A stretch of 64,000 nt of DNA from Flavipsychrobacter sp. (GCA_031292525.1 JARLGY010000010.1:90806-154805); one strand, 5' to 3'. Shown: positions 2,139 to 11,955, numbered from the stretch's first letter. Made by a program: numbers and translations. Notes: a model not told the origin generated them from the letters alone.

Positions 2139-4856
2139 ATGCGTTCTACAAATAAAATACAGCAGCTAAAAAGCAACCTATCCCCAAATGGAGTAAGCGG
2201 CTTTGACGAAAGCGCTATTACCAAACTTCGCGGTGCAGCCCGCACAGACAGCGCATATTTTTTGCCAGCACTTGATAGCAATATCAATGGTCTTACACCT
2301 GAACAAGTATCAGAAAAAATAAAATTATTCGGCTTGAACGAAATTGAGCATGAAAAAGCGCCTGCCTGGTACAAGCAGTTATTTCAGGCTTTCGTCAATC
2401 CGTTCATCGCTGTTCTTATTATCCTTGCCATCATTTCTTTTATCATGGATGTGCTGCTGGCGGCACCCGGGGATGCTGACTATAAAACAGTGATCGTGGT
2501 AGGAACAATGGTGATGCTTAGCTCACTATTGCGGTTTTGGCAGGAATATACCAGTAACCGTGCAGCGGAGGAATTAAAAGGGATGGTTAAAACTACCGCT
2601 ACCGTATTAAGGCAGGTAGGATTGCGTATCAGTACCAAAAAAGAGATCGAGATAAAAGATATCGTACCGGGCGACATTATATCACTCAGTGCAGGAGATA
2701 TGATACCTGCGGACTGTAGAGTTATTCAATCCAAAGACCTGTTTGTGAGCCAGGCCATGCTCACCGGGGAATCGCTGCCATTAGAAAAGCGAGAGGTAAA
2801 AATTGCAGGTGCTGAAAACAAATCACCATTAGAGCTGGATAACATCTGCTTTATGGGTACTAATGTTGTCAGCGGGATGGCAACCGTAGTTGCCGTCACC
2901 ACAGGGAACCTCACCTATTTCGGCTCGATTGGCAAAGCTATTTCAGGGAAAAGAGCTGAAACAAGTTTTGACAAAGGTGTTAACAAAGTAAGCTGGCTGC
3001 TTATTCGTTTTATGCTGGTCATGGTGCCACTGGTTTTTTTGATCAATGGCTTTACCAAGCACAACTGGCTGGAAGCGCTATTATTTGGAATATCCGTAGC
3101 TGTTGGCTTAACCCCAGAAATGCTGCCGATGATCGTTACCGCCAACCTGGCAAAAGGGGCGTTGAACATGAGCAAAAGGAAAGTGATCGTAAAACGCTTG
3201 AATGCTATCCAGAATATTGGTGCTATGGATATCCTGTGTACGGACAAAACGGGTACCCTTACAATGGATAAGATAGTGCTTGAGCGGCATTTAAATGTGT
3301 TTGGTGATGAAGATGACGAGGTGATGAAATGGGCGTATCTCAACAGTTTTCACCAAACAGGACTAAAGAATTTGCTGGACGTAGCGGTATTGGAACATGC
3401 AGAGATACATAATTGTTTGAAGGCTGACGAATTTTTTAAAAAGATCGATGAAATACCATTTGATTTCCAGCGCAGGCGAATGAGTGTGATCCTCGAAGAA
3501 AAGAATGGTAAACACTTATTGATATGCAAGGGGGCTGTGGAAGAGATGCTGGATATTTGTTCCCATGCTTTTGATCCTGGCGAAGATAAACAACTACATA
3601 TTGAGAATGACAAGATCGTTCCGATGGATGATGCCATGCGAAAGATCATTCTCAATACCTCTAAGAAATTAAACGAGGAAGGTCTGAGGGTCTTATTGGT
3701 TGCTATCAAAGAATATGATGAACGTCCACTTACCTATTCTATCGCTGATGAACATGGCTTGGTACTGACAGGTTTTGTTGGCTTCTTGGACCCGGCCAAA
3801 CCTTCTGCTAAGCCAGCTATTGAGGGTTTGCATAAATTGGGCGTGAGTATAAAGGTGCTAACGGGCGATAATGAAATTGTCACTAAAAAGATATGCAGGG
3901 ATGTAGGTATTCCTATTACCAATGTGTTATTGGGTAGTGATATGGAGAAAATGAGCGATGAGGATATTATCTCCAAGATCGATGATATTTCTATCATAGC
4001 TAAACTAAGCCCAATACAAAAATCACGGGTCATAAAGTTACTACAAATCAAAGGTCATACTGTCGGCTTTATGGGCGATGGTATTAATGATGCCGCTGCC
4101 TTACGTGATGCAGATGTTGGCATTTCCGTTGATACTGCCGTTGATATAGCCAAGGAAAGTGCCGATATTATTTTGTTGGAGAAAGACCTGATGGTGATCC
4201 GCAAAGGTGTAGTATATGGCCGTAGAACTTTCGGCAATATCATCAAGTATATTAAAATGACTGCAAGCAGCAATTTCGGTAACATGTTCAGTGTACTAGG
4301 CGCAAGTGCTTTATTGCCGTTCTTACCGATGCTGCCTATTCAATTATTGGTGCAGAACCTGTTGTATGATATCTCCCAGATATCTATCCCCTGGGATAGC
4401 ATGGATAAGGAGTTTATCGAAAAACCACAAAAATGGGATGCAGGCAGTATCAGCCGCTTTATGGTTTTCATTGGACCTATTAGCTCTATATTCGATTATA
4501 CGACGTTTGCCGTGATGTTCTTTTTCTTTAAAGCCAATTCCCCTGAACATCAAAGCTTGTTTCAAAGTGGGTGGTTTATAGAAGGCTTATTGTCTCAGAC
4601 ACTGATCGTCCATATGATCCGCACCAGGAAAATTCCATTCATCCAAAGCTGGGCTACTGCACCTGTCCTTGCGCTTACGTCTCTGATCATGGCACTCGGC
4701 ATTTTTATTCCGTTCTCGCCATTAGCTTCAGCGTTGAAAATGCAAGCTTTACCCCTTAGTTATTTCCCTTGGCTTATAGGGATATTGTTGAGTTACTGCT
4801 TCCTGACACAATTTGTAAAGACATGGTTCATTAAAAAATTCAACGAGTGGTTATGA
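2139..4856 (+). CDS. mgtA: Magnesium-translocating P-type ATPase
   Basis: P-type ATPase motifs are present: TGES, DKTGTLT, TGDN and GDGINDAAAL. At 905 aa, the length and TM layout are typical of MgtA/MgtB. Confidence 0.93.
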   Translation: MRSTNKIQQLKSNLSPNGVSGFDESAITKLRGAARTDSAYFLPALDSNINGLTPEQVSEKIKLFGLNEIEHEKAPAWYKQLFQAFVNPFIAVLIILAIISFIMDVLLAAPGDADYKTVIVVGTMVMLSSLLRFWQEYTSNRAAEELKGMVKTTATVLRQVGLRISTKKEIEIKDIVPGDIISLSAGDMIPADCRVIQSKDLFVSQAMLTGESLPLEKREVKIAGAENKSPLELDNICFMGTNVVSGMATVVAVTTGNLTYFGSIGKAISGKRAETSFDKGVNKVSWLLIRFMLVMVPLVFLINGFTKHNWLEALLFGISVAVGLTPEMLPMIVTANLAKGALNMSKRKVIVKRLNAIQNIGAMDILCTDKTGTLTMDKIVLERHLNVFGDEDDEVMKWAYLNSFHQTGLKNLLDVAVLEHAEIHNCLKADEFFKKIDEIPFDFQRRRMSVILEEKNGKHLLICKGAVEEMLDICSHAFDPGEDKQLHIENDKIVPMDDAMRKIILNTSKKLNEEGLRVLLVAIKEYDERPLTYSIADEHGLVLTGFVGFLDPAKPSAKPAIEGLHKLGVSIKVLTGDNEIVTKKICRDVGIPITNVLLGSDMEKMSDEDIISKIDDISIIAKLSPIQKSRVIKLLQIKGHTVGFMGDGINDAAALRDADVGISVDTAVDIAKESADIILLEKDLMVIRKGVVYGRRTFGNIIKYIKMTASSNFGNMFSVLGASALLPFLPMLPIQLLVQNLLYDISQISIPWDSMDKEFIEKPQKWDAGSISRFMVFIGPISSIFDYTTFAVMFFFFKANSPEHQSLFQSGWFIEGLLSQTLIVHMIRTRKIPFIQSWATAPVLALTSLIMALGIFIPFSPLASALKMQALPLSYFPWLIGILLSYCFLTQFVKTWFIKKFNEWL

Positions 4857-4982: not shown

Positions 4983-5024
4983 AAAAATGCTCATGTCGTG
5001 ATAGGTTCGATAGTCAAAAAGGAT

Positions 5025-5071
5025 GACCCATTTTGACTCGAACCAACCAGCACTGAAAATCAATGCATTGC
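5025..5071 (-). repeat. Decayed tRNA-like fragment (T-arm-like GGTTCGAGTC), left copy
   Basis: The minus strand reads ...GCATTGATTTTCAGTGCTGGTTGGTTCGAGTCAAAATGGGTC. No complete cloverleaf can be folded. It is paralogous to 10678-10724. Confidence 0.45.
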
Positions 5072-5090
5072 AACTTCAAACAACGAGGCT

Positions 5091-5136
5091 AAAATAGTAA
5101 AACCCGCTCTGAGAGCGGGTTTTACCTTACATGTTA
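5091..5136. repeat. Left copy of a 46-nt direct repeat (orphan copy of the tRNA-Gln terminator flank)
   Basis: It is 44/46 identical to 10743-10788. Both mismatches lie at the apex of the hairpin aaacccgctc/gagcgggttt (5100-5122). Confidence 0.85.
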
Positions 5137-5187
5137 ACCCATCTGTATTTTTTTCGAACCAATTTGTAGGAGATTTGAAGAAAATCG
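5136..5187. repeat. Copy 1 of a roughly 50-nt repeat family (AACCCATCTG-ATTTTTTTCGAACC-TTTGTAGGAGATTTGAAGAAAATCG)
   Basis: It aligns by eye with 5853-5903 and 5919-5972. Positionally it corresponds to a decayed 3' part of tRNA-Gln. Confidence 0.7.
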
Positions 5188-5260
5188 GCCTTTCGATTAT
5201 CTAACATTCGTATATTTATTTATTCGTATGACATACAAATAAAATACCGTGCAAAGTAAT

Positions 5261-5818
5261 ATGGGCTTTTCGCTTGAAAATATAGAGGAATTTAAAATTC
5301 CATTAGACGACTACATATCGAAATGGATATTCACGGATGAAAACGAGCAATTGGCGAGTAAAGAACATCAAGACCAAATCTTTCCATTAACAAAAGAAGC
5401 TGCAAATTTTCTTTGGGATCATGAAGTAAAAATCGGCATCATATGTTCAGAGAAGTTTTTTAAAAATATTTCGGCGTTTGATGGTGGATCATCTGGTCAA
5501 CAGACAATTAAGAAATACTTGTACAATTTAGGTATTCCGTTTAGCCAAAAGGTTTTTATAGCGCAGCAGCCCGATACCGCTTTTGTGCTTACCTGGAAAA
5601 TGGTGATCAAATACTCACACAATCTTTTTTTCGCTCATGACCAAATAGTTTGGGACAGAACATTGAATTGGCAACTAGAATTTCACCACGACGGGCTTTT
5701 TACCTTTGGACGAGACTTTATTTACGACGGACAATCTGAGATGCAAAAAAATAAAGAAAAAACACAAATAGCATTGAAAGAAATGGCTGAACGAAAAAAC
5801 CGACACGGTTTCGACTAA
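5261..5818 (+). CDS. Hypothetical protein (185 aa from the ATG; the ORF track starts at GTG 5249)
   Basis: It is the only long ORF in this segment. It is flanked by repeat copies 1 and 2. No motif was recognised. Confidence 0.55.
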   Translation: MGFSLENIEEFKIPLDDYISKWIFTDENEQLASKEHQDQIFPLTKEAANFLWDHEVKIGIICSEKFFKNISAFDGGSSGQQTIKKYLYNLGIPFSQKVFIAQQPDTAFVLTWKMVIKYSHNLFFAHDQIVWDRTLNWQLEFHHDGLFTFGRDFIYDGQSEMQKNKEKTQIALKEMAERKNRHGFD

Positions 5819-5827
5819 ATAAAAAAA

Positions 5828-5844
5828 GCCCCGCAATGCGGGGC
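5828..5844. terminator. GC-rich hairpin gccccgc-aat-gcggggc
   Basis: The 7-bp GC stem has an A7 tract on its plus-strand 5' side, which reads as a U-tract on the minus strand. It lies 10 nt after the stop codon of 5261-5818. Confidence 0.55.
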
Positions 5845-5852
5845 TGAAAGTT

Positions 5853-5903
5853 AACCCATCTGGATTTTTTTCGAACCGGTTTGTGGAGGATTTGAAAAAA
5901 TTG
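5853..5903. repeat. Copy 2 of the roughly 50-nt repeat family
   Basis: aacccatctggatttttttcgaaccggtttgtggaggatttgaaaaaattg. Confidence 0.7.
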
Positions 5904-5918
5904 TCAGCATGATATGAT

Positions 5919-5972
5919 GACCCGGATTGCATTTTTTTTCGAACCGGTTTGTAGAAGATTTGAAGAAAATCG
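5919..5972. repeat. Copy 3 of the roughly 50-nt repeat family
   Basis: gacccggattgcattttttttcgaaccggtttgtagaagatttgaagaaaatcg. Confidence 0.65.
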
Positions 5973-6157
5973 TCGTCTATTATATGTAAAGATATAGTCT
6001 CATTTGGTCGGGAGAACGTGTCAAATTTCGAACTTATTTATGAACCTCATGCAATTCAACATATCATTACATCAGTAGGCCTAACCATGCATAACTTGAC
6101 ATCACTCGATACAACCGAGCACAATACCAAATGAGGTTGACAGGACAACTTTCAAAC

Positions 6158-7636
6158 TCATAATTTGCTTTTGATACTTTGCATATCATTCTTAAATTGC
6201 ATAAGTTTATTATCATCTATTGCAATATCAGGGTAATAGGTTTTAATAAATTCCAGTGCAGAAACTCTACCTGATAATATCAGAAATTTCTTTTTGTCAG
6301 AGGTTAATTTGAAATCTGTTGTCTTTATTGGAGTGGTATCGATTTTTACAATCTTATCGAGATTTCTATCTACAAAGTCCATTTCTTCCCCGTCAACAGA
6401 CAAATTAAATAGCTCATTGAGGACAGACCAGCTTCTCTTGGTCGTCGATTTTAGATAGAGGCCAATGAACGGTTTCTCTGGATTGTCTTCAATAAAGCGT
6501 TTTAATGGGAAATTATTTCGTAATCCACCATCGTAAACTTTTATCCCGTCTTCTTTTTTGCAAGTGAAGTAAATTGGAATTGACATGGAGCACCTCGCAG
6601 CATATGCAGCATGTGCTGTTTTCCGATCTCCATGAGACTCAAATTTTATTGTCCCGTCCTTTACTCTGCTTGCATATAAAGTTATCTCAACCGGAATATC
6701 TGCTAAAACGACTTCATTTTCTTTTTTTATTTTCTTTTTGATTAACTGGCTAATCCAACTTTCTATTTCGTTCCCTGGATATAAGCCACCTTTTGAAAAA
6801 AGGTTAGCAAGCATCTGTAAAACACCTGCGTCTTTAAAATCATTGAAGTTTTTGCTACTCAATTCAATAAGTAACTCAGCAGGTGTATATCCAGCTCCTA
6901 ATAGAACAGCAGCAATTGCACCAGCATATGCGGTAAAAGAAAAATGCTGCTCTAATTCAAGTAGTGCCCCAGCAAAAGCCAAGCCTTTCACCCCACCTCC
7001 TTTCAAAATAATTGCGTACGAATGTTGGTTACTAACAACCAAAAGTAATTTGTTAATAGCTTCATTTATACCAATAGTCAGCCTGGGTTGCAGTTTGGCA
7101 CGACAACTATCACAAATGTGGCCCGAAGCCAACGATAAAAGTAATTCATATTTTTTCTCTTTGAAATGGAAAATGCAATCTTTATTTTCCTTTTCATTGT
7201 GTGATTTTAATTCGGGCTGTAGAAAACTCAGCGCATATCTTACCAAATAGTAACGGCAGTATCTAACTCTATCGTTTACAAATTGATTGAAGTTGTACGT
7301 CGTAAATACAGCAAATTCACCATTTTCGGACCTTGTTCCAAATATATCCTCCCATCTGTTCGATGATAAATAACCATTAACAATTAGTATTATGAATGGT
7401 CGATGGCCCTTTGCCTCCGCTTTATACTCTATAAGCCATTTAAAAACATCGTTTGAAACGTATTTCTCTCTCTTATAAGGGTACAGTTTTTCCCTGAGGT
7501 CATGTTCAGCTAGGCTAAAATGGAATTCGGTTTGCACTTTATTGAGCGATTCGCAAGCTGCGCTCACACTTTTAATCAAATCAAGGCTGATTGTTAATAT
7601 TTCTATTGGATAAGGCATCGTGTCTTTAAGTAACAA
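6158..7636 (-). CDS. Two-domain protein: unassigned N-terminal domain of about 205 aa fused to a patatin-like phospholipase fold with no GxSxG serine
   Basis: Three patatin blocks are present: GGGVKG (oxyanion), ARCSMSIPIYF and YDGGLRNNFP (Asp of the dyad). The nucleophile-elbow position reads FTAYAGA instead of GTSAGA. Position 7636 is a TTG, so ATG 7618 (MPYPIE) is the more likely start. Confidence 0.75.
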   Translation of the reverse strand: MLLKDTMPYPIEILTISLDLIKSVSAACESLNKVQTEFHFSLAEHDLREKLYPYKREKYVSNDVFKWLIEYKAEAKGHRPFIILIVNGYLSSNRWEDIFGTRSENGEFAVFTTYNFNQFVNDRVRYCRYYLVRYALSFLQPELKSHNEKENKDCIFHFKEKKYELLLSLASGHICDSCRAKLQPRLTIGINEAINKLLLVVSNQHSYAIILKGGGVKGLAFAGALLELEQHFSFTAYAGAIAAVLLGAGYTPAELLIELSSKNFNDFKDAGVLQMLANLFSKGGLYPGNEIESWISQLIKKKIKKENEVVLADIPVEITLYASRVKDGTIKFESHGDRKTAHAAYAARCSMSIPIYFTCKKEDGIKVYDGGLRNNFPLKRFIEDNPEKPFIGLYLKSTTKRSWSVLNELFNLSVDGEEMDFVDRNLDKIVKIDTTPIKTTDFKLTSDKKKFLILSGRVSALEFIKTYYPDIAIDDNKLMQFKNDMQSIKSKL

Positions 7637-8009
7637 TTAATGTTGGATCTTCGTCGTAAAGCATTTCACCGGTCTGACCGCTTTCTACCTTCACTCCATA
7701 TTTAAAATGACCTTTTTTTTCTGCCTCGTCTTCTGCAATTCGAACAATTGTCTTCTCATTTTCCTGAAGGATAAAAGGAATATCTAACACTTGCACAAAC
7801 TTCCGTTTCCAACTAAAAGGTGAACTCCTATCAAAATATACTGTAAAAATCAAGCCTATCGGCGAATAGTGCGGGCGGATTCTTTTTTAAAAATCGATAA
7901 TATTCCATTGGATGATTGAGTGCAGTGGAACGACAATTTCGTTTGGGATCCGCAAAAGTTTTTCGGGTTGTCCTGTGAGTTCGATATCTATTTTTATTAT
8001 CTCGGCCAT
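7626..8009 (-). pseudogene. 127-codon reading frame interrupted by one in-frame TAA (7887-7889). It is either a nonsense-disrupted gene or two small ORFs (40 aa plus about 75 aa).
   Basis: My own translation: ATG 8009 MAEIIKIDIELTGQPEKLLRIPNEIVVPLHSIIQWNIIDF, then TAA, then KRIRPHYSPIGLIFTVYFDR... in the same frame. The stop lies in a T5A6 tract. Confidence 0.5.
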
Positions 8010-8065
8010 TGCACTTATTTTACGATAAACATACTAAGAGAATATTTTTTAGTAACAATTGTACT

Positions 8066-8947
8066 TTAATCCTCGTCAAACAACTTTTTACGATTTGCTT
8101 CAAACTCTGCCATAATTGTAAAGTTGATGTCTTTGGCGATGCCTTCAATGTCTGGGAATATCGAATAATGAGTTATTCCTTTTTCCTCTCTTAATTCGTG
8201 AAATATTTCTTTCCGGCAAGCATTTGGAATAAATATTTTATGAAGTGATTTATCAATTGGCCAATATTCTTCCAAAGATTTAACCCAAAAACCGAAATAG
8301 ACAAAAACACCTTTTTGCGCATGTATTCTTACATTGTTATTGTCTGTTTTGACGGCGAATGGAAAGTCTACATTGGATAATGTGTCGAAGTTATACTCGT
8401 TGAGGTCTACAATTTCCGCTCTGTTTATAAAATGAATATTTTCATTTATTTTCTTTGGATTAATACAATAAATAGCGGCACCGTTTTCTGACCAGCCCCC
8501 ATTCATAATGAAATCACGAATGTCTATGGTTACAGAATCCGCAGATAGCTGACCATTATTTTTTTCAGAGACGGCAAAATACGCAGCGACTAGAGGTTCT
8601 TTACTAAAATCCAACAAACGAGTTAATATCCCATAATGTTGCATGAGATATAAATAGTCAATTTCATTAAAGCCGGCACAATTACATAACTTACTATACT
8701 GCTCTTTAAACGAACTTAATACACCTATATCGTTGGGTAAGATTACTTTTCCTTCAGTAATTCGGAAGTTTCTTATTTTATCAGATATGTTGTGCTTTGG
8801 TAACACAATCTTTTGCCTAAATAGGGTTGGTTCTAATTGATACATCGCGCTCGTGTGGCCCCTATACCAAACAGCACCTTCGATATTCTCGATTTCTTTA
8901 ATAATTTCAAAGAGCTCGTTTAAACTTGTAGCAGTATATAGTGTCAT
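8066..8947 (-). CDS. FRG-domain protein
   Basis: WYRGH is the FRG-motif equivalent, and MQHYGILTRLLDFSKEPLVAAYFA matches the conserved QHyGlpTrLLDwt..p.vAlyFA block of the Pfam FRG family as I recall it. Confidence 0.72.
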   Translation of the reverse strand: MTLYTATSLNELFEIIKEIENIEGAVWYRGHTSAMYQLEPTLFRQKIVLPKHNISDKIRNFRITEGKVILPNDIGVLSSFKEQYSKLCNCAGFNEIDYLYLMQHYGILTRLLDFSKEPLVAAYFAVSEKNNGQLSADSVTIDIRDFIMNGGWSENGAAIYCINPKKINENIHFINRAEIVDLNEYNFDTLSNVDFPFAVKTDNNNVRIHAQKGVFVYFGFWVKSLEEYWPIDKSLHKIFIPNACRKEIFHELREEKGITHYSIFPDIEGIAKDINFTIMAEFEANRKKLFDED

Positions 8948-8991
8948 TGCGCTTTTGTTTAATTACAGGAACCAAACTGAAAACAAGCCTC

Positions 8992-9477
8992 CTAAACCCT
9001 CGTTTCATCGTTTTCGACATCATCTTCAATGCTAGTCAATTTTTTCGCAATCGAAAGCAGTGTGGTTATTAGAATGTAGAACGTTATAGCAAAAACAATC
9101 GCGATTGTAGTCTGGACGGATGTTGCGAAATTTGAGTCTTTATTTAACCATGGATAATCTTTTCCAAATTGTTTAACAGATTCAACATAGCCATACTTGA
9201 TCCCAGCTTGGAGTAAAAAGCCAATAGACGCTAATAACAGCCTTTCCCCCTGCTTTGCCGCAAACTCCTCTGTGCGCTTAACAGACCTACTCCAGTTGAA
9301 AGTGACACTCCCAAGACCAGCAATAATTGCCGCGCCATAACTTGTCAGAGTACTATAAGTACTATTATCGAGATCGGCGAATGTTTTAATGAAGACATTT
9401 ATGCATAAAAGTGCGAAGATGATGAATGGCACGTAGAGAAATAAAAGTTTCGCAAGAATCTTAAACGTTTTCATCAT
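8992..9477 (-). CDS. Hypothetical membrane protein, about four TM helices, acidic C-terminal tail
   Basis: Four hydrophobic segments are visible: LLFLYVPFIIFALLCINVF, YGAAIIAGLGSVTF, LLLASIGFLLQAGI and TIAIVFAITFYILITTLLSI. It is 12 nt downstream of the preceding gene. Confidence 0.65.
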   Translation of the reverse strand: MMKTFKILAKLLFLYVPFIIFALLCINVFIKTFADLDNSTYSTLTSYGAAIIAGLGSVTFNWSRSVKRTEEFAAKQGERLLLASIGFLLQAGIKYGYVESVKQFGKDYPWLNKDSNFATSVQTTIAIVFAITFYILITTLLSIAKKLTSIEDDVENDETRV

Positions 9478-9489
9478 GGGAATTCTGGA

Positions 9490-10155
9490 TTATTGTTTCC
9501 GACTTCTTTTGGGTTTTCCTAGTTTCAGCAATTCTGCTTGTACGTAAGAATTGTTTTCGACAATGTTCTCCGCAACCTTTCCCTCTTTTGTACTTGCAAT
9601 CTGAGCGGTAATTACGGTATTACCCTCCATGTTTTCTTCTGAAATAAATCTTTCAATAAAAAATCTGTTTCCTAAAGCTTTGTTCTCAAATTGCGGGAGA
9701 ATATGATTGAGCAAAATTTGATTTCTTTCTGAGAGATGTTTTATCAGATAAGAATTTACAATTTCGGCATCTGCTTCCGAAATTTTTTGTTTTCGCCCCT
9801 TAGTAAATTCTTCCACAACACTGCTAACAATGAAGCCAAGCGTGAGGATGCTAGTAGCGGCTATTACACCTACAAGTAAGAGACTCCCTTTTTCAATTTT
9901 ATCTATATAGAAATTTGTTGTTTCCGAAAATCTTGAATACAGTTTATCCTGAATAGATTGCTTCTCTCTGTACTTTAGATTAATCTTTAAGAGCAGAAAT
10001 TCAATTTCTGCTCTTAAAATATCGTTAGTGATCTTCGAATATTCTCTTATCAACTGTCTAAAAGTTCCATCTGAAATATTTTCTAGTTCAGCATGATAAA
10101 ATCGGATATACAAATCTGGAATTCCAGGACTATCTTTCGATTTGTGTTTTGCCAT
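9490..10155 (-). CDS. Hypothetical single-pass membrane protein (221 aa) with helical, charged flanks
   Basis: There is one central hydrophobic segment (LLLVGVIAATSILTLGFIVSSVV). It is the first gene of the co-directional cassette. Confidence 0.6.
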   Translation of the reverse strand: MAKHKSKDSPGIPDLYIRFYHAELENISDGTFRQLIREYSKITNDILRAEIEFLLLKINLKYREKQSIQDKLYSRFSETTNFYIDKIEKGSLLLVGVIAATSILTLGFIVSSVVEEFTKGRKQKISEADAEIVNSYLIKHLSERNQILLNHILPQFENKALGNRFFIERFISEENMEGNTVITAQIASTKEGKVAENIVENNSYVQAELLKLGKPKRSRKQ

Positions 10156-10677
10156 GGTGATTTATTAAGATGAGAGTGCAGCTATTGCTACTCTTGGGCT
10201 ACTTAAGCGCAGTCACCAGTGGAGTATTTCTACTTAACGAGCTTTGGGTCACTCTATTACGGCAGATAGCCTCACTCTCATCGTAGGTAGTATTAATATA
10301 ACGACTCTTAAGCGTATTTTTTACAAAATAAGCTGTTTCAGTTAGAAAATATACTACATCTAAAAATAAATTTAGGGCTCCTGTAATTAGGCAGCCTATA
10401 GAACTAATCGAAGTAACTAAGTGCTTTTCGGAGTCTGATAATTTTTGCAGCTTCGAATAATGTGATTAAAGGATGAGACCATTTGACTTTGATGGGTATT
10501 GAATTGGTTGCGAGCCGAGATTATTAGTGGAACTGTTTTAAAAGAAATTTGAGCCACATTAAACTCAATTACCCCTCTTTTCTTCGTTTGTAACGAGGAT
10601 GCAACCACAACCGTTTGTAACGACAATATAATAAGAGGCAATTTCAACCCTTTTGAAAAGGACTCTTTATTTTTAGT

Positions 10678-10724
10678 GACCGAATTGGACTCGAACCGAG
10701 AATAGTTGAAAATGAATTGGTTAC
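10678..10724 (-). repeat. Decayed tRNA-like fragment, right copy
   Basis: The minus strand reads ...CCAATTCATTTTCAACTATTCTCGGTTCGAGTCCAATTCGGTC. The T-stem is not complementary and there is no D-arm. Confidence 0.45.
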
Positions 10725-10742
10725 AAATAAACCAAAAATTAG

Positions 10743-10788
10743 AAAATAGTAAAACCCGCTTTCAGAGCGGGTTTTACCTTACATGTTA
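10743..10788. repeat. Right copy of the 46-nt direct repeat, which is the intrinsic terminator flank of tRNA-Gln
   Basis: Hairpin aaacccgct/agcgggttt (10752-10774) is followed on the minus strand by TTTTACTATTTT, immediately 3' of the tRNA. Confidence 0.85.
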
Positions 10789-10856
10789 TCCGACCTGGAC
10801 TCGAACCAAGACAAACAGAACCAGAATCTGTTGTGCTACCATTACACAATCGGACA
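10786..10856 (-). tRNA. tRNA-Gln (anticodon CUG), 71 nt, no encoded CCA
   Basis: Hand-folded cloverleaf. Acceptor stem TGTCCGA/TCGGATA (U1-A72). D stem GTGT/GCAC. Anticodon stem ACAGA/TCTGT with loop TTCTGGT. T arm CTTGG-TTCGAGT-CCAGG. Confidence 0.9.
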
Positions 10857-10884: not shown

Positions 10885-11025
10885 ATGCATTATCTCATTT
10901 TTCGAAAAAAGTCTTGCACTTTTTTTCAGAAGACGATATTAAAACAGAAAATAGTATCTAGGGAATACTCGCTATTTTTGCTGCTCACAATCCAACTTTT
11001 TTTGAGTACAGACGATAAATTCCTG

Positions 11026-11955
11026 ATGTTTGAGAACCGCCTGCGCAAGGTGTACAAACACTACAGCAAGCTAGCGCGCAACCAGGATGTGGCGTGCTTC
11101 CGTTTTTACGATCACGACCTGCCCGAATTTCCTTTTGCTATAGAATGGTACAATGGCGCAGTGCATGCTGCTGAATACAAGCGCAAACATGGCATGGAGG
11201 ATGATGCACACGATGCATGGCTGCTACAATGCCGCCAGATACTAGCCGATGTGTTGCAGATATTGCCAGATGTGATATTTATGAAGGAACGCATGCGCAA
11301 AGCAGGGCGGCAAGGCCAATATGAGAAGTTTGATGAGCGGAAAGAAGAGCGCATTGTACCAGAGGGTGGCCAGAGCTTTATCATCAACCTTACAGATTAC
11401 CTGGATACCGGGCTATTCCTGGATCACCGTATTACTCGCGGCATGGTGCGCGATGAGGCTAAAGGCAAACATGTACTCAACCTATTCTGCTACACGGGGT
11501 CGTTTAGCGTGTACGCTGCAGCCGGTGGCGCAGCAACTGTTACGTCAGTAGATATATCAAAAACCTACCTCAACTGGGCTAAGCGAAACATGCAGTATAA
11601 TAAGCTGTACAAAGATACCCAGCACGATTTTATACATACAGATGTATTGGATTTTATAAACGACATACCAGCCAATACTTACGATCTTATTATTTGCGAT
11701 CCGCCCACATTCTCGAACAGTAAGCGAATGGAGGGCGACTTTGACGTACAAAGGGATCATGTAGCATTATTAAAAAAACTGTTAAAAGCATCGACAGAAA
11801 CAGGCAAAATATACTTCAGCAATAACTACCGAAATTTTGTGCTCGACAAAGATGCAATACCCGTTTTCAACATAAAAGACATAACCAAAGCCACTACCCC
11901 ATTCGATTTTCAGGGTAAACTGAACCGTTCTTGTTTTCTGCTGGATAAATTGTAA
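11026..11955 (+). CDS. Class I SAM-dependent RNA methyltransferase (RlmK/RlmL C-terminal-like)
   Basis: Contains DHDLPEFPF, a VLNLFCYTGSFSV SAM-binding loop and a DPPTFS catalytic motif. The start is moved to ATG 11026 because the 10885 extension overlaps the tRNA-Gln promoter. Confidence 0.75.
   Translation: MFENRLRKVYKHYSKLARNQDVACFRFYDHDLPEFPFAIEWYNGAVHAAEYKRKHGMEDDAHDAWLLQCRQILADVLQILPDVIFMKERMRKAGRQGQYEKFDERKEERIVPEGGQSFIINLTDYLDTGLFLDHRITRGMVRDEAKGKHVLNLFCYTGSFSVYAAAGGAATVTSVDISKTYLNWAKRNMQYNKLYKDTQHDFIHTDVLDFINDIPANTYDLIICDPPTFSNSKRMEGDFDVQRDHVALLKKLLKASTETGKIYFSNNYRNFVLDKDAIPVFNIKDITKATTPFDFQGKLNRSCFLLDKL

Follow-up and report, generated by a model that had tools for sequence, protein, structure and literature searches.

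Patatin and FRG-domain proteins both belong to families of conflict contexts, and genes for one of each occur close together in a 64,000 nucleotide (nt) stretch of DNA from a Flavipsychrobacter sp. metagenome-assembled genome (Bacteroidota). In this stretch, referred to here as the window with coordinates counted from its first letter, five open reading frames (ORFs) follow one another on the minus strand, coding for two membrane proteins (TM1 and TM2), an FRG protein, a small protein and a patatin fusion with a distinct N-terminal domain (N-domain). A preliminary description of the window took these five genes to be a single undescribed defence system. The comparisons reported here point instead, with moderate confidence, to a small composite islet acquired horizontally at the 3′ side of a tRNA-Gln gene, in which three independent co-oriented modules lie side by side and the third is disabled. 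Judged from their sequences, the five ORFs appear to form module A (TM1-TM2), module B (FRG) and module C (small protein and patatin fusion), since homologues do not co-occur beyond those groupings.

The described counterpart of the patatin fusion is CapV, the phospholipase effector of the cyclic oligonucleotide-based antiphage signalling system (CBASS), with which it shares the patatin fold, the oxyanion motif GGGxKG, the DGG aspartate, a defence-island setting and a presumed attack on the membrane. The window fusion nonetheless matches the PADLOC models for CBASS phospholipase effectors weakly (E = 1.8e-5) and scores 20.5 bits against a cut-off of 200 with the NCBIfam model CBASS_lipase (NF041079), such that it is not the CapV equivalog. 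Unlike CapV, the fusion of module C carries a dead archaemetzincin-fold N-domain and has an obligatory small partner, with the window copy also lacking its nucleophile. CBASS itself was rejected for the window, with no cyclase or other CBASS component detected by PADLOC and Pfam among the seven ORFs in and beside the islet. In conflict systems the same effector cassette also occurs joined to STAND/P-loop or receiver domains, whereas module C has a dead metalloprotease fold together with a separate small protein and no NTPase. The archaemetzincins (AmzA, family M54; PDB entries 2x7m, 3lmc, 3zvs and 4axq) have their overall fold in common with the N-domain, which also keeps a Cys-rich C-terminal pattern like that of a metal site, but they are stand-alone archaeal or eukaryotic proteases with the motif HExxHxxGxxH, while the domain in module C is fused to a lipase and found in bacterial defence islands.

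The order of a protein with one transmembrane helix, a protein with several and a putative NAD+-targeting protein in the window also recalls Rst_2TM_1TM_TIR, reportedly a three-gene system of two membrane proteins and a TIR NADase. The analogy is superficial only, and a system of the 2TM-1TM-NADase kind was rejected, TM1 and TM2 being without a PADLOC match and the FRG gene and TM pair not being linked elsewhere. The FRG domain has been placed in the ADP-ribosyltransferase superfamily and proposed to be an NADase-type antiviral effector (PMC9503650). Within PADLOC the single-gene FRG candidate is PDC-S15, of which the window FRG protein is an ordinary member with no notable difference.

Distribution of the five genes in related loci

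Co-occurrence was assessed in 80 genome loci with patatin relatives, of which 20 were full-length (N-domain and patatin) and 60 were without the N-domain, and in the loci of the two closest relatives of the patatin fusion (71% and 64% identity), giving 22 other full-length loci in all. When all window proteins were searched against the 80 loci by tblastn, the small ORF was the only one found near a patatin gene. TM1, TM2 and FRG were absent from every one of the 80 loci and from both closest-relative loci, the latter carrying the small gene and the fusion alone among the window's genes. The preliminary description had looked to co-occurrence of FRG and patatin-fusion homologues as a check on its single system, and this was found in neither direction, the FRG relatives likewise being without a patatin gene. 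A profile hidden Markov model of the small protein detected its gene in 20 of 20 full-length loci and in 0 of 60 without the N-domain, lying just upstream of the fusion in 19 of the 20 and downstream in one. The exception is an Acidobacteriota locus (L011, 10001-12569) in which the small gene follows the patatin fusion at a distance of about 760 nt. In keeping with this pairing, all-against-all clustering of neighbouring ORFs returned the small protein and the patatin fusion as the only recurring neighbour families.

The FRG protein matches the Pfam family FRG (PF08867) with E = 5.3e-20 (72.6 bits against a cut-off of 25), 14 PADLOC PDC-S15 models, the best being PDLC04938 over almost the full length (E = 5.5e-42), and phrog_4962 (E = 3.6e-34). 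It shares the single-gene behaviour of PDC-S15, as its relatives at four loci have unrelated neighbours in defence or mobile contexts. The relative at 59% identity (two loci) lies directly after a type I restriction-modification (R-M) and AbiE cluster, that at 41% identity is beside an integrase, HNH, SymE and insertion sequence elements and that at 40% identity is within an element like the integrative and conjugative ones; no homologue of TM1, TM2 or patatin was found near the FRG relatives in these four loci. Module B looks intact and ordinary, with a predicted role as an NAD+-consuming effector.

The two membrane proteins are rarer. TM1 has one central hydrophobic helix and TM2, by eye, about four, and neither has a match in Pfam, NCBIfam, PADLOC (even at E<=1) or PHROGs. 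A TM1 homologue (68% identity) lies directly upstream of a TM2 homologue (P0298, 63-65% identity) in two loci (L090 and L091), with no FRG or patatin gene on a contig carrying this homologue pair. Only 24 relatives of TM2 were detected at E<=1e-3 among 1.84 billion representatives, metagenome scans with alignments of TM2 (plus three relatives) and of TM1 (plus the L090 homologue) returned zero relatives and a scan of viral contigs for TM1 returned nothing. One further TM2 relative (L093, 437-1347; 41% identity) is preceded by a 134-amino acid (aa) ORF, not a TM1-like one of 220 aa, and followed by an ABC ATPase gene. Module A can be regarded as a rare, conserved pair of predicted membrane proteins.

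The small protein and patatin fusion of module C

The patatin domain of the fusion matches Pfam Patatin (PF01734) with E = 5.5e-19 (69.6 bits against a gathering cut-off of 27.7), so that both the FRG and the patatin assignments of the preliminary description stand. Relatives of the fusion numbered 287 at E<=1e-3, and the best 120 of these 287, mostly full-length, are the listed homologues referred to below. The oxyanion motif GGGVKG is present in the window protein and invariant in an alignment of 14 full-length homologues (A1), as is D363-G364-G365 of the catalytic aspartate motif VYDGG (residues 361-365), with DGG found in 114 of the 120 listed homologues. What is missing is exactly A-G-T-S of the conserved nucleophile elbow F-A-G-T-S-A-G, the window fusion reading FTAY-AGAIAA when aligned with the 14 homologues. 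GxSxG is kept in 118 of the 119 listed homologues with GGGxKG, the sole exception being the window protein. The absence of the serine had already been pointed out, and it can now be refined to an exact 12-nt deletion: the window DNA reads TAT GCT GGT GCA, with the gap following TAT, where homologues read TTT GCA GGA ACA TCG GCA GGT GCA. As expected of a slippage deletion, the 12-nt gap falls between two GCN-GG direct repeats.

The small gene was described earlier as a split ORF, and while the break is real the gene is better regarded as one 127-codon frame with a single internal in-frame TAA at codon 41. The homologous small genes are uninterrupted in 20 of 20 loci, with intact homologues being 109-147 aa long; where homologues have a residue at the column of the stop codon it is mostly E, D, Y, K or Q, and those that are more distant have a gap there. 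Stop-codon reassignment was rejected, as TAA ends neighbouring genes in the window. Both lesions are reproduced in a Logan assembly (L001, SRR23300977) that is 100% identical to the window over 6301 nt, and this being an independent assembly neither lesion is the artefact of one assembler; the window fusion protein is in addition recorded on 3 contigs from 2 samples. With the small gene truncated at codon 41 and the lipase without its nucleophile, the window copy of module C should be inert, and the loss of both partners fits the decay of a toxic module.

The AlphaFold2 model of an intact homologue of the small protein (P0121) is a beta-sandwich with a mean predicted local distance difference test (pLDDT) score of 84.5. 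Foldseek gave weak cupredoxin-like matches (E about 1e-3, TM-score 0.4-0.5) to domains of nitrite and N2O reductases and to pseudoazurin, while a profile of the small protein against PDB sequences returned plastocyanin only (E = 0.17). The cupredoxin copper ligands (His/Cys/Met) are not conserved in the small protein, the only invariant residues being W, Y, P, G, K and D. Against viral models the only Foldseek matches were to the generic beta-sandwich of tail and baseplate domains. A DP-EP match of the 75-aa fragment of the small gene (E = 0.031) did not recur in other members of the family and was discarded.

The N-domain (residues 1-203) was modelled with AlphaFold2 from a 72-sequence alignment (pLDDT 92.6). 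The best five Foldseek matches in the PDB were all archaemetzincins of the AmzA type (E = 7.6e-7 to 1.7e-5, TM-score 0.55-0.70, probability 1.00), and the NCBIfam archaemetzincin model matches the domain with E = 9.5e-5 (22.4 bits against a cut-off of 145) in an alignment that ends before the catalytic motif; a profile of the N-domain had no significant match among PDB sequences. The motif HExxHxxGxxH is absent, the window protein having L-S-x-x-Q-x-x-L-x-x-H in its place, and any HExxH occurs in only 1 of 118 homologues. A second pattern, H...C...CxxC (H140...C148...C169xxC172), is kept in 117 of the 118. This marks the N-domain as a pseudo-protease, probably with a structural metal site still in place. 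The nearest patatin-domain relatives without the N-domain (L023, L026, L030, L031, L032 and L034; about 40% identity) have N-termini that are receiver-like or consist of a P-loop region (GxxxxGKT/S) of about 390 aa, a sign of the same patatin lipase cassette being reused on different regulatory modules, as is typical of a shuffled effector. Pfam searches with members of the small-protein and N-domain families gave scattered sub-threshold matches only, and Pfam, NCBIfam, PADLOC and PHROGs hold no model for either.

The pair of small gene and fusion, found in all 20 full-length genome loci, spans about seven phyla, with a range of Bacteroidota, Acidobacteriota, Verrucomicrobiota, Armatimonadota, Gemmatimonadota, Balneolaceae and Proteobacteria. 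Examples of an intact pair are found in Flavobacterium zhoui ZS1P70 (L012, 9628-11470) and Kordia zhangzhouensis (L005, 9588-11476). Its neighbours as identified with Pfam include a Gabija-like OLD-TOPRIM ATPase with a UvrD helicase, MksE and an integrase; ParB, DUF932, SRAP and a reverse transcriptase; Abi_C, DUF4365, a radical-SAM protein and NERD; TIR_2, Uma2 and an antitoxin; Vsr, Dcm, HATPase_c_3, Z1 and DUF4420; and a type IIG R-M protein. A PADLOC scan of 216 neighbouring ORFs from the 20 module C loci matched type III R-M (E = 0), GajA/GajB (about 1e-217), PDC-S02, NERD with UvrD, a DRT-like protein and AriA. The full-length fusion was found in no viral contig, the only matches there being distant patatin domains without the N-domain. 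Literature searches on archaemetzincin and patatin combinations, PDC-S15 and patatin anti-phage or conflict systems turned up no description of the module C pair.

In an intact module C the dead-protease domain and the cytoplasmic small protein (about 125 aa) would hold the patatin lipase inactive, until an infection cue or the loss of the small protein freed it. The freed lipase could then hydrolyse membrane phospholipids and so bring about cell death or arrest, in the manner of abortive infection or of a toxin-antitoxin pair. Such a model is supported indirectly, in that linkage of the small protein is confined to patatins with the N-domain and in that the order of the genes, with the small one upstream and nearly abutting, resembles that of antidote-toxin pairs. 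It is tentatively suggested, at somewhat less than even probability, that the pair is an undescribed and widespread two-gene abortive-infection system in which the pseudo-protease and the small partner, as bait or inhibitor, detect infection and release a lipase that destroys membranes, the window copy having been recently inactivated. Membrane targeting and an anti-phage phenotype would presumably be part of its action.

Layout of the islet and its flanks

The five ORFs, listed with the other features of the islet in Table 1, are arranged exactly as first described, with spacings of 12, 44 and 56 nt and a last junction of -11 or +7 nt according to which start codon of the fusion is used. The earlier account of an AT-rich islet next to a tRNA gene also proved correct, the G+C content being 0.359 within 5205-10676 and 0.412 in the remaining window, as did the statement that none of the genes is a housekeeping gene, in keeping with a horizontally acquired tRNA-linked islet.

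Table 1. Positions of genes, domains, lesions and repeats in and around the islet.
Feature	Coordinates	Strand	Remarks
TM1	9490-10155	minus	ORF, 221 aa; first gene of module A
TM2	8992-9477	minus	ORF, 161 aa; second gene of module A
FRG protein	8066-8947	minus	293 aa, intact; module B
Small beta-sandwich protein gene	7626-8009 (pieces 7887-8009 and 7626-7853)	minus	127-codon frame, pseudogene; first gene of module C
Premature TAA, codon 41 of small gene	7887-7889	minus	One in-frame stop
Patatin fusion	6158-7636 (TTG start, 492 aa) or 6158-7618 (ATG start, 486 aa)	minus	Second gene of module C
N-domain of patatin fusion, residues 1-203	7010-7618	minus	Archaemetzincin (M54) fold without HExxH
Patatin domain	6494-7009	minus	Pfam PF01734; GGGVKG and DGG present, GxSxG missing
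Site of 12-nt in-frame deletion (A-G-T-S), between codons 231 and 232	6923-6928	minus	From alignment with homologues
Terminator-like hairpin, 7 of 8 pairs G-C	5827-5845	minus	3′ of patatin gene
tRNA-Gln(CTG), right-hand islet boundary	10785-10856	minus	ARAGORN; Rfam tRNA, 54.2 bits
Right flanking direct repeat: tRNA 3′ end, terminator hairpin, tRNA-like 3′ fragment	10677-10797		Repeat comparison
Left flanking direct repeat: degenerate tRNA 3′ fragment, same hairpin, second fragment	5024-5204		D2 91% over 55 nt, D4 70% over 50 nt
Two more degenerate tRNA-3′-like repeat copies (D1, D3), between DUF2947-like gene and the five ORFs	5850-5989		Repeat comparison

The islet is 5.6 kb in size, with the 3′ region of tRNA-Gln repeated imperfectly and in direct orientation at its two ends. 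About 180 nt on the left (5024-5204) mirror 10677-10856 on the right, with the core that contains the hairpin (D2) being the best conserved part at 91% identity over 55 nt. These copies look like attachment-site (att) scars left by successive insertions at the tRNA 3′ end. No integrase was found among the ORFs of 5200-10700 from ORF calls and Pfam, and for this reason the islet looks like the remnant of an element. The tRNA-3′-like element with the GGTTCGA T-arm core is present in four copies, one real (tRNA-Gln) and three degenerate, and a relaxed-threshold Rfam search returned the tRNA as its sole match.

The hairpin that follows the patatin gene is the only strong terminator-like hairpin on the minus strand 3′ of the five ORFs, with no strong one between them, and read-through transcription of all five is possible because of this. 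A sigma-70 promoter scan gave sites no more numerous than in shuffled sequences, the sigma-70 model being ill-suited to Bacteroidota.

Other observations concern the rest of the islet and its surroundings. An ORF of 189 aa (5249-5818, plus strand) with a partial DUF2947 match (E = 8.6e-7) stands alone between two repeat copies, on the strand opposite the five ORFs; a DUF2947-like protein was found by tblastn in none of the 80 patatin-relative loci. A perfect palindrome of 16+16 nt with a 1-nt spacer (TTTAAGAGCAGAAATT A AATTTCTGCTCTTAAA) occupies 9986-10018 inside the TM1 coding sequence. Upstream of TM1 about 520 nt (10156-10676) are non-coding, with only a doubtful 76-aa ORF and a 20-nt inverted repeat (10166-10185 and 10266-10285), and have no Rfam match. 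Genes for a PF10672-type S-adenosylmethionine methyltransferase and an E1-E2 cation ATPase flank the islet in the window (2139-4856 and 10885-11955), and the same two families adjoin a module C defence island in Kordia zhangzhouensis (L084, 14108-17994), with a cation ATPase also lying 4.5 kb away at a further locus (L102, 1003-3546). The shared flanking families of these three loci may reflect either coincidence or a recurrent insertion hotspot.

Weighing the explanations

Among the alternatives, the one that survives best sees module C chiefly as a toxin-antitoxin or addiction unit carried by mobile elements, the small protein being the antidote and the patatin the toxin, such that in the window the loss of the toxin was followed by decay of the antidote. 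In its favour the small gene almost touches the lipase gene from the upstream side, with its stop codon overlapping the lipase start at one locus (L101), the pair is strictly linked and often carried on integrative or conjugative-type DNA, and both genes are inactivated in the window. The small protein, however, has neither a DNA-binding nor a known antitoxin fold and genuine defence genes are common among the neighbours. A toxin-antitoxin role and one in abortive infection are compatible, such that this explanation overlaps with that of an abortive-infection pair; as the primary role of module C, addiction is considered rather unlikely.

It is improbable that the window copy of module C still functions. 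In such a case the patatin without its serine would be a pseudo-enzyme with a new function, and the small gene would yield either two peptides or, with read-through of the TAA, one protein. The remainder of both frames is intact, a TTG could serve as start codon for the 75-codon downstream part of the small gene and the lipase retains the oxyanion motif and DGG aspartate. Yet this would be the only one of the 119 listed homologues without GxSxG, every one of the 20 homologous small genes is uninterrupted and TAA is the normal stop of neighbouring genes, and decay accounts better for two independent lesions in a single two-gene unit.

That the five genes form one operon and one new defence system, with the membrane and FRG proteins sensing or anchoring and the patatin fusion as effector, is very unlikely. 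The co-directional genes with their short gaps, the lack of a strong terminator between them and their position in one islet all speak for it; against it stands zero co-occurrence in about 100 related loci, an FRG protein that fits a single-gene candidate (the PDC-S15 match noted above), a supposed effector without its nucleophile and a conserved partner that is truncated. By two conditions that the preliminary description itself set for giving up its claim, a match to a named system and homologues that never co-occur, the single-system reading falls, the named match being the candidate PDC-S15. The mechanism first proposed, sensing by the TM and FRG proteins with the patatin acting downstream, gains no support from a patatin copy that lacks its nucleophile beside a partner gene with a premature stop, and of the fallback offered at the time, two independent modules of two or three genes, the independence holds while the number becomes three. 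Lastly, the source being a metagenome-assembled genome, assembly or sequencing artefacts in an organism with an intact module C might be suspected, but this is highly improbable given the independent assembly identical over 6.3 kb, the protein on 3 contigs from 2 samples and a 12-nt deletion that keeps the frame and falls cleanly between GCNGG repeats, which is atypical of sequencing error.

Several points also weigh against the explanation preferred here, that of a composite islet of three independent modules with module C disabled, and against the roles given to those modules. Short gaps and the lack of a strong internal terminator make co-transcription possible, and with it a local functional link between the genes. 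The genomic context of TM1 and TM2 is known from two other loci only, and with no integrase in the islet an integration mechanism would have to be read from the repeats. PDC-S15 is a candidate, and the phage-defence roles of module C, PDC-S15 and the TM pair are predicted only. The association of module C with defence islands is a descriptive tally without a background control, and regulation by the small protein and the dead protease domain is putative.

For the window the result is mainly corrective, in that an apparent five-gene operon is better seen as an islet of three unrelated mobile modules, one of them dead, and it illustrates that closely spaced genes of the same orientation in a defence islet need not be one system. 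The window itself is of moderate interest, and it is the module C family that merits further attention: should intact copies confer protection against phages, the pseudo-protease and its small beta-sandwich partner would represent a new type of sensor or regulator for lipase-based abortive infection.

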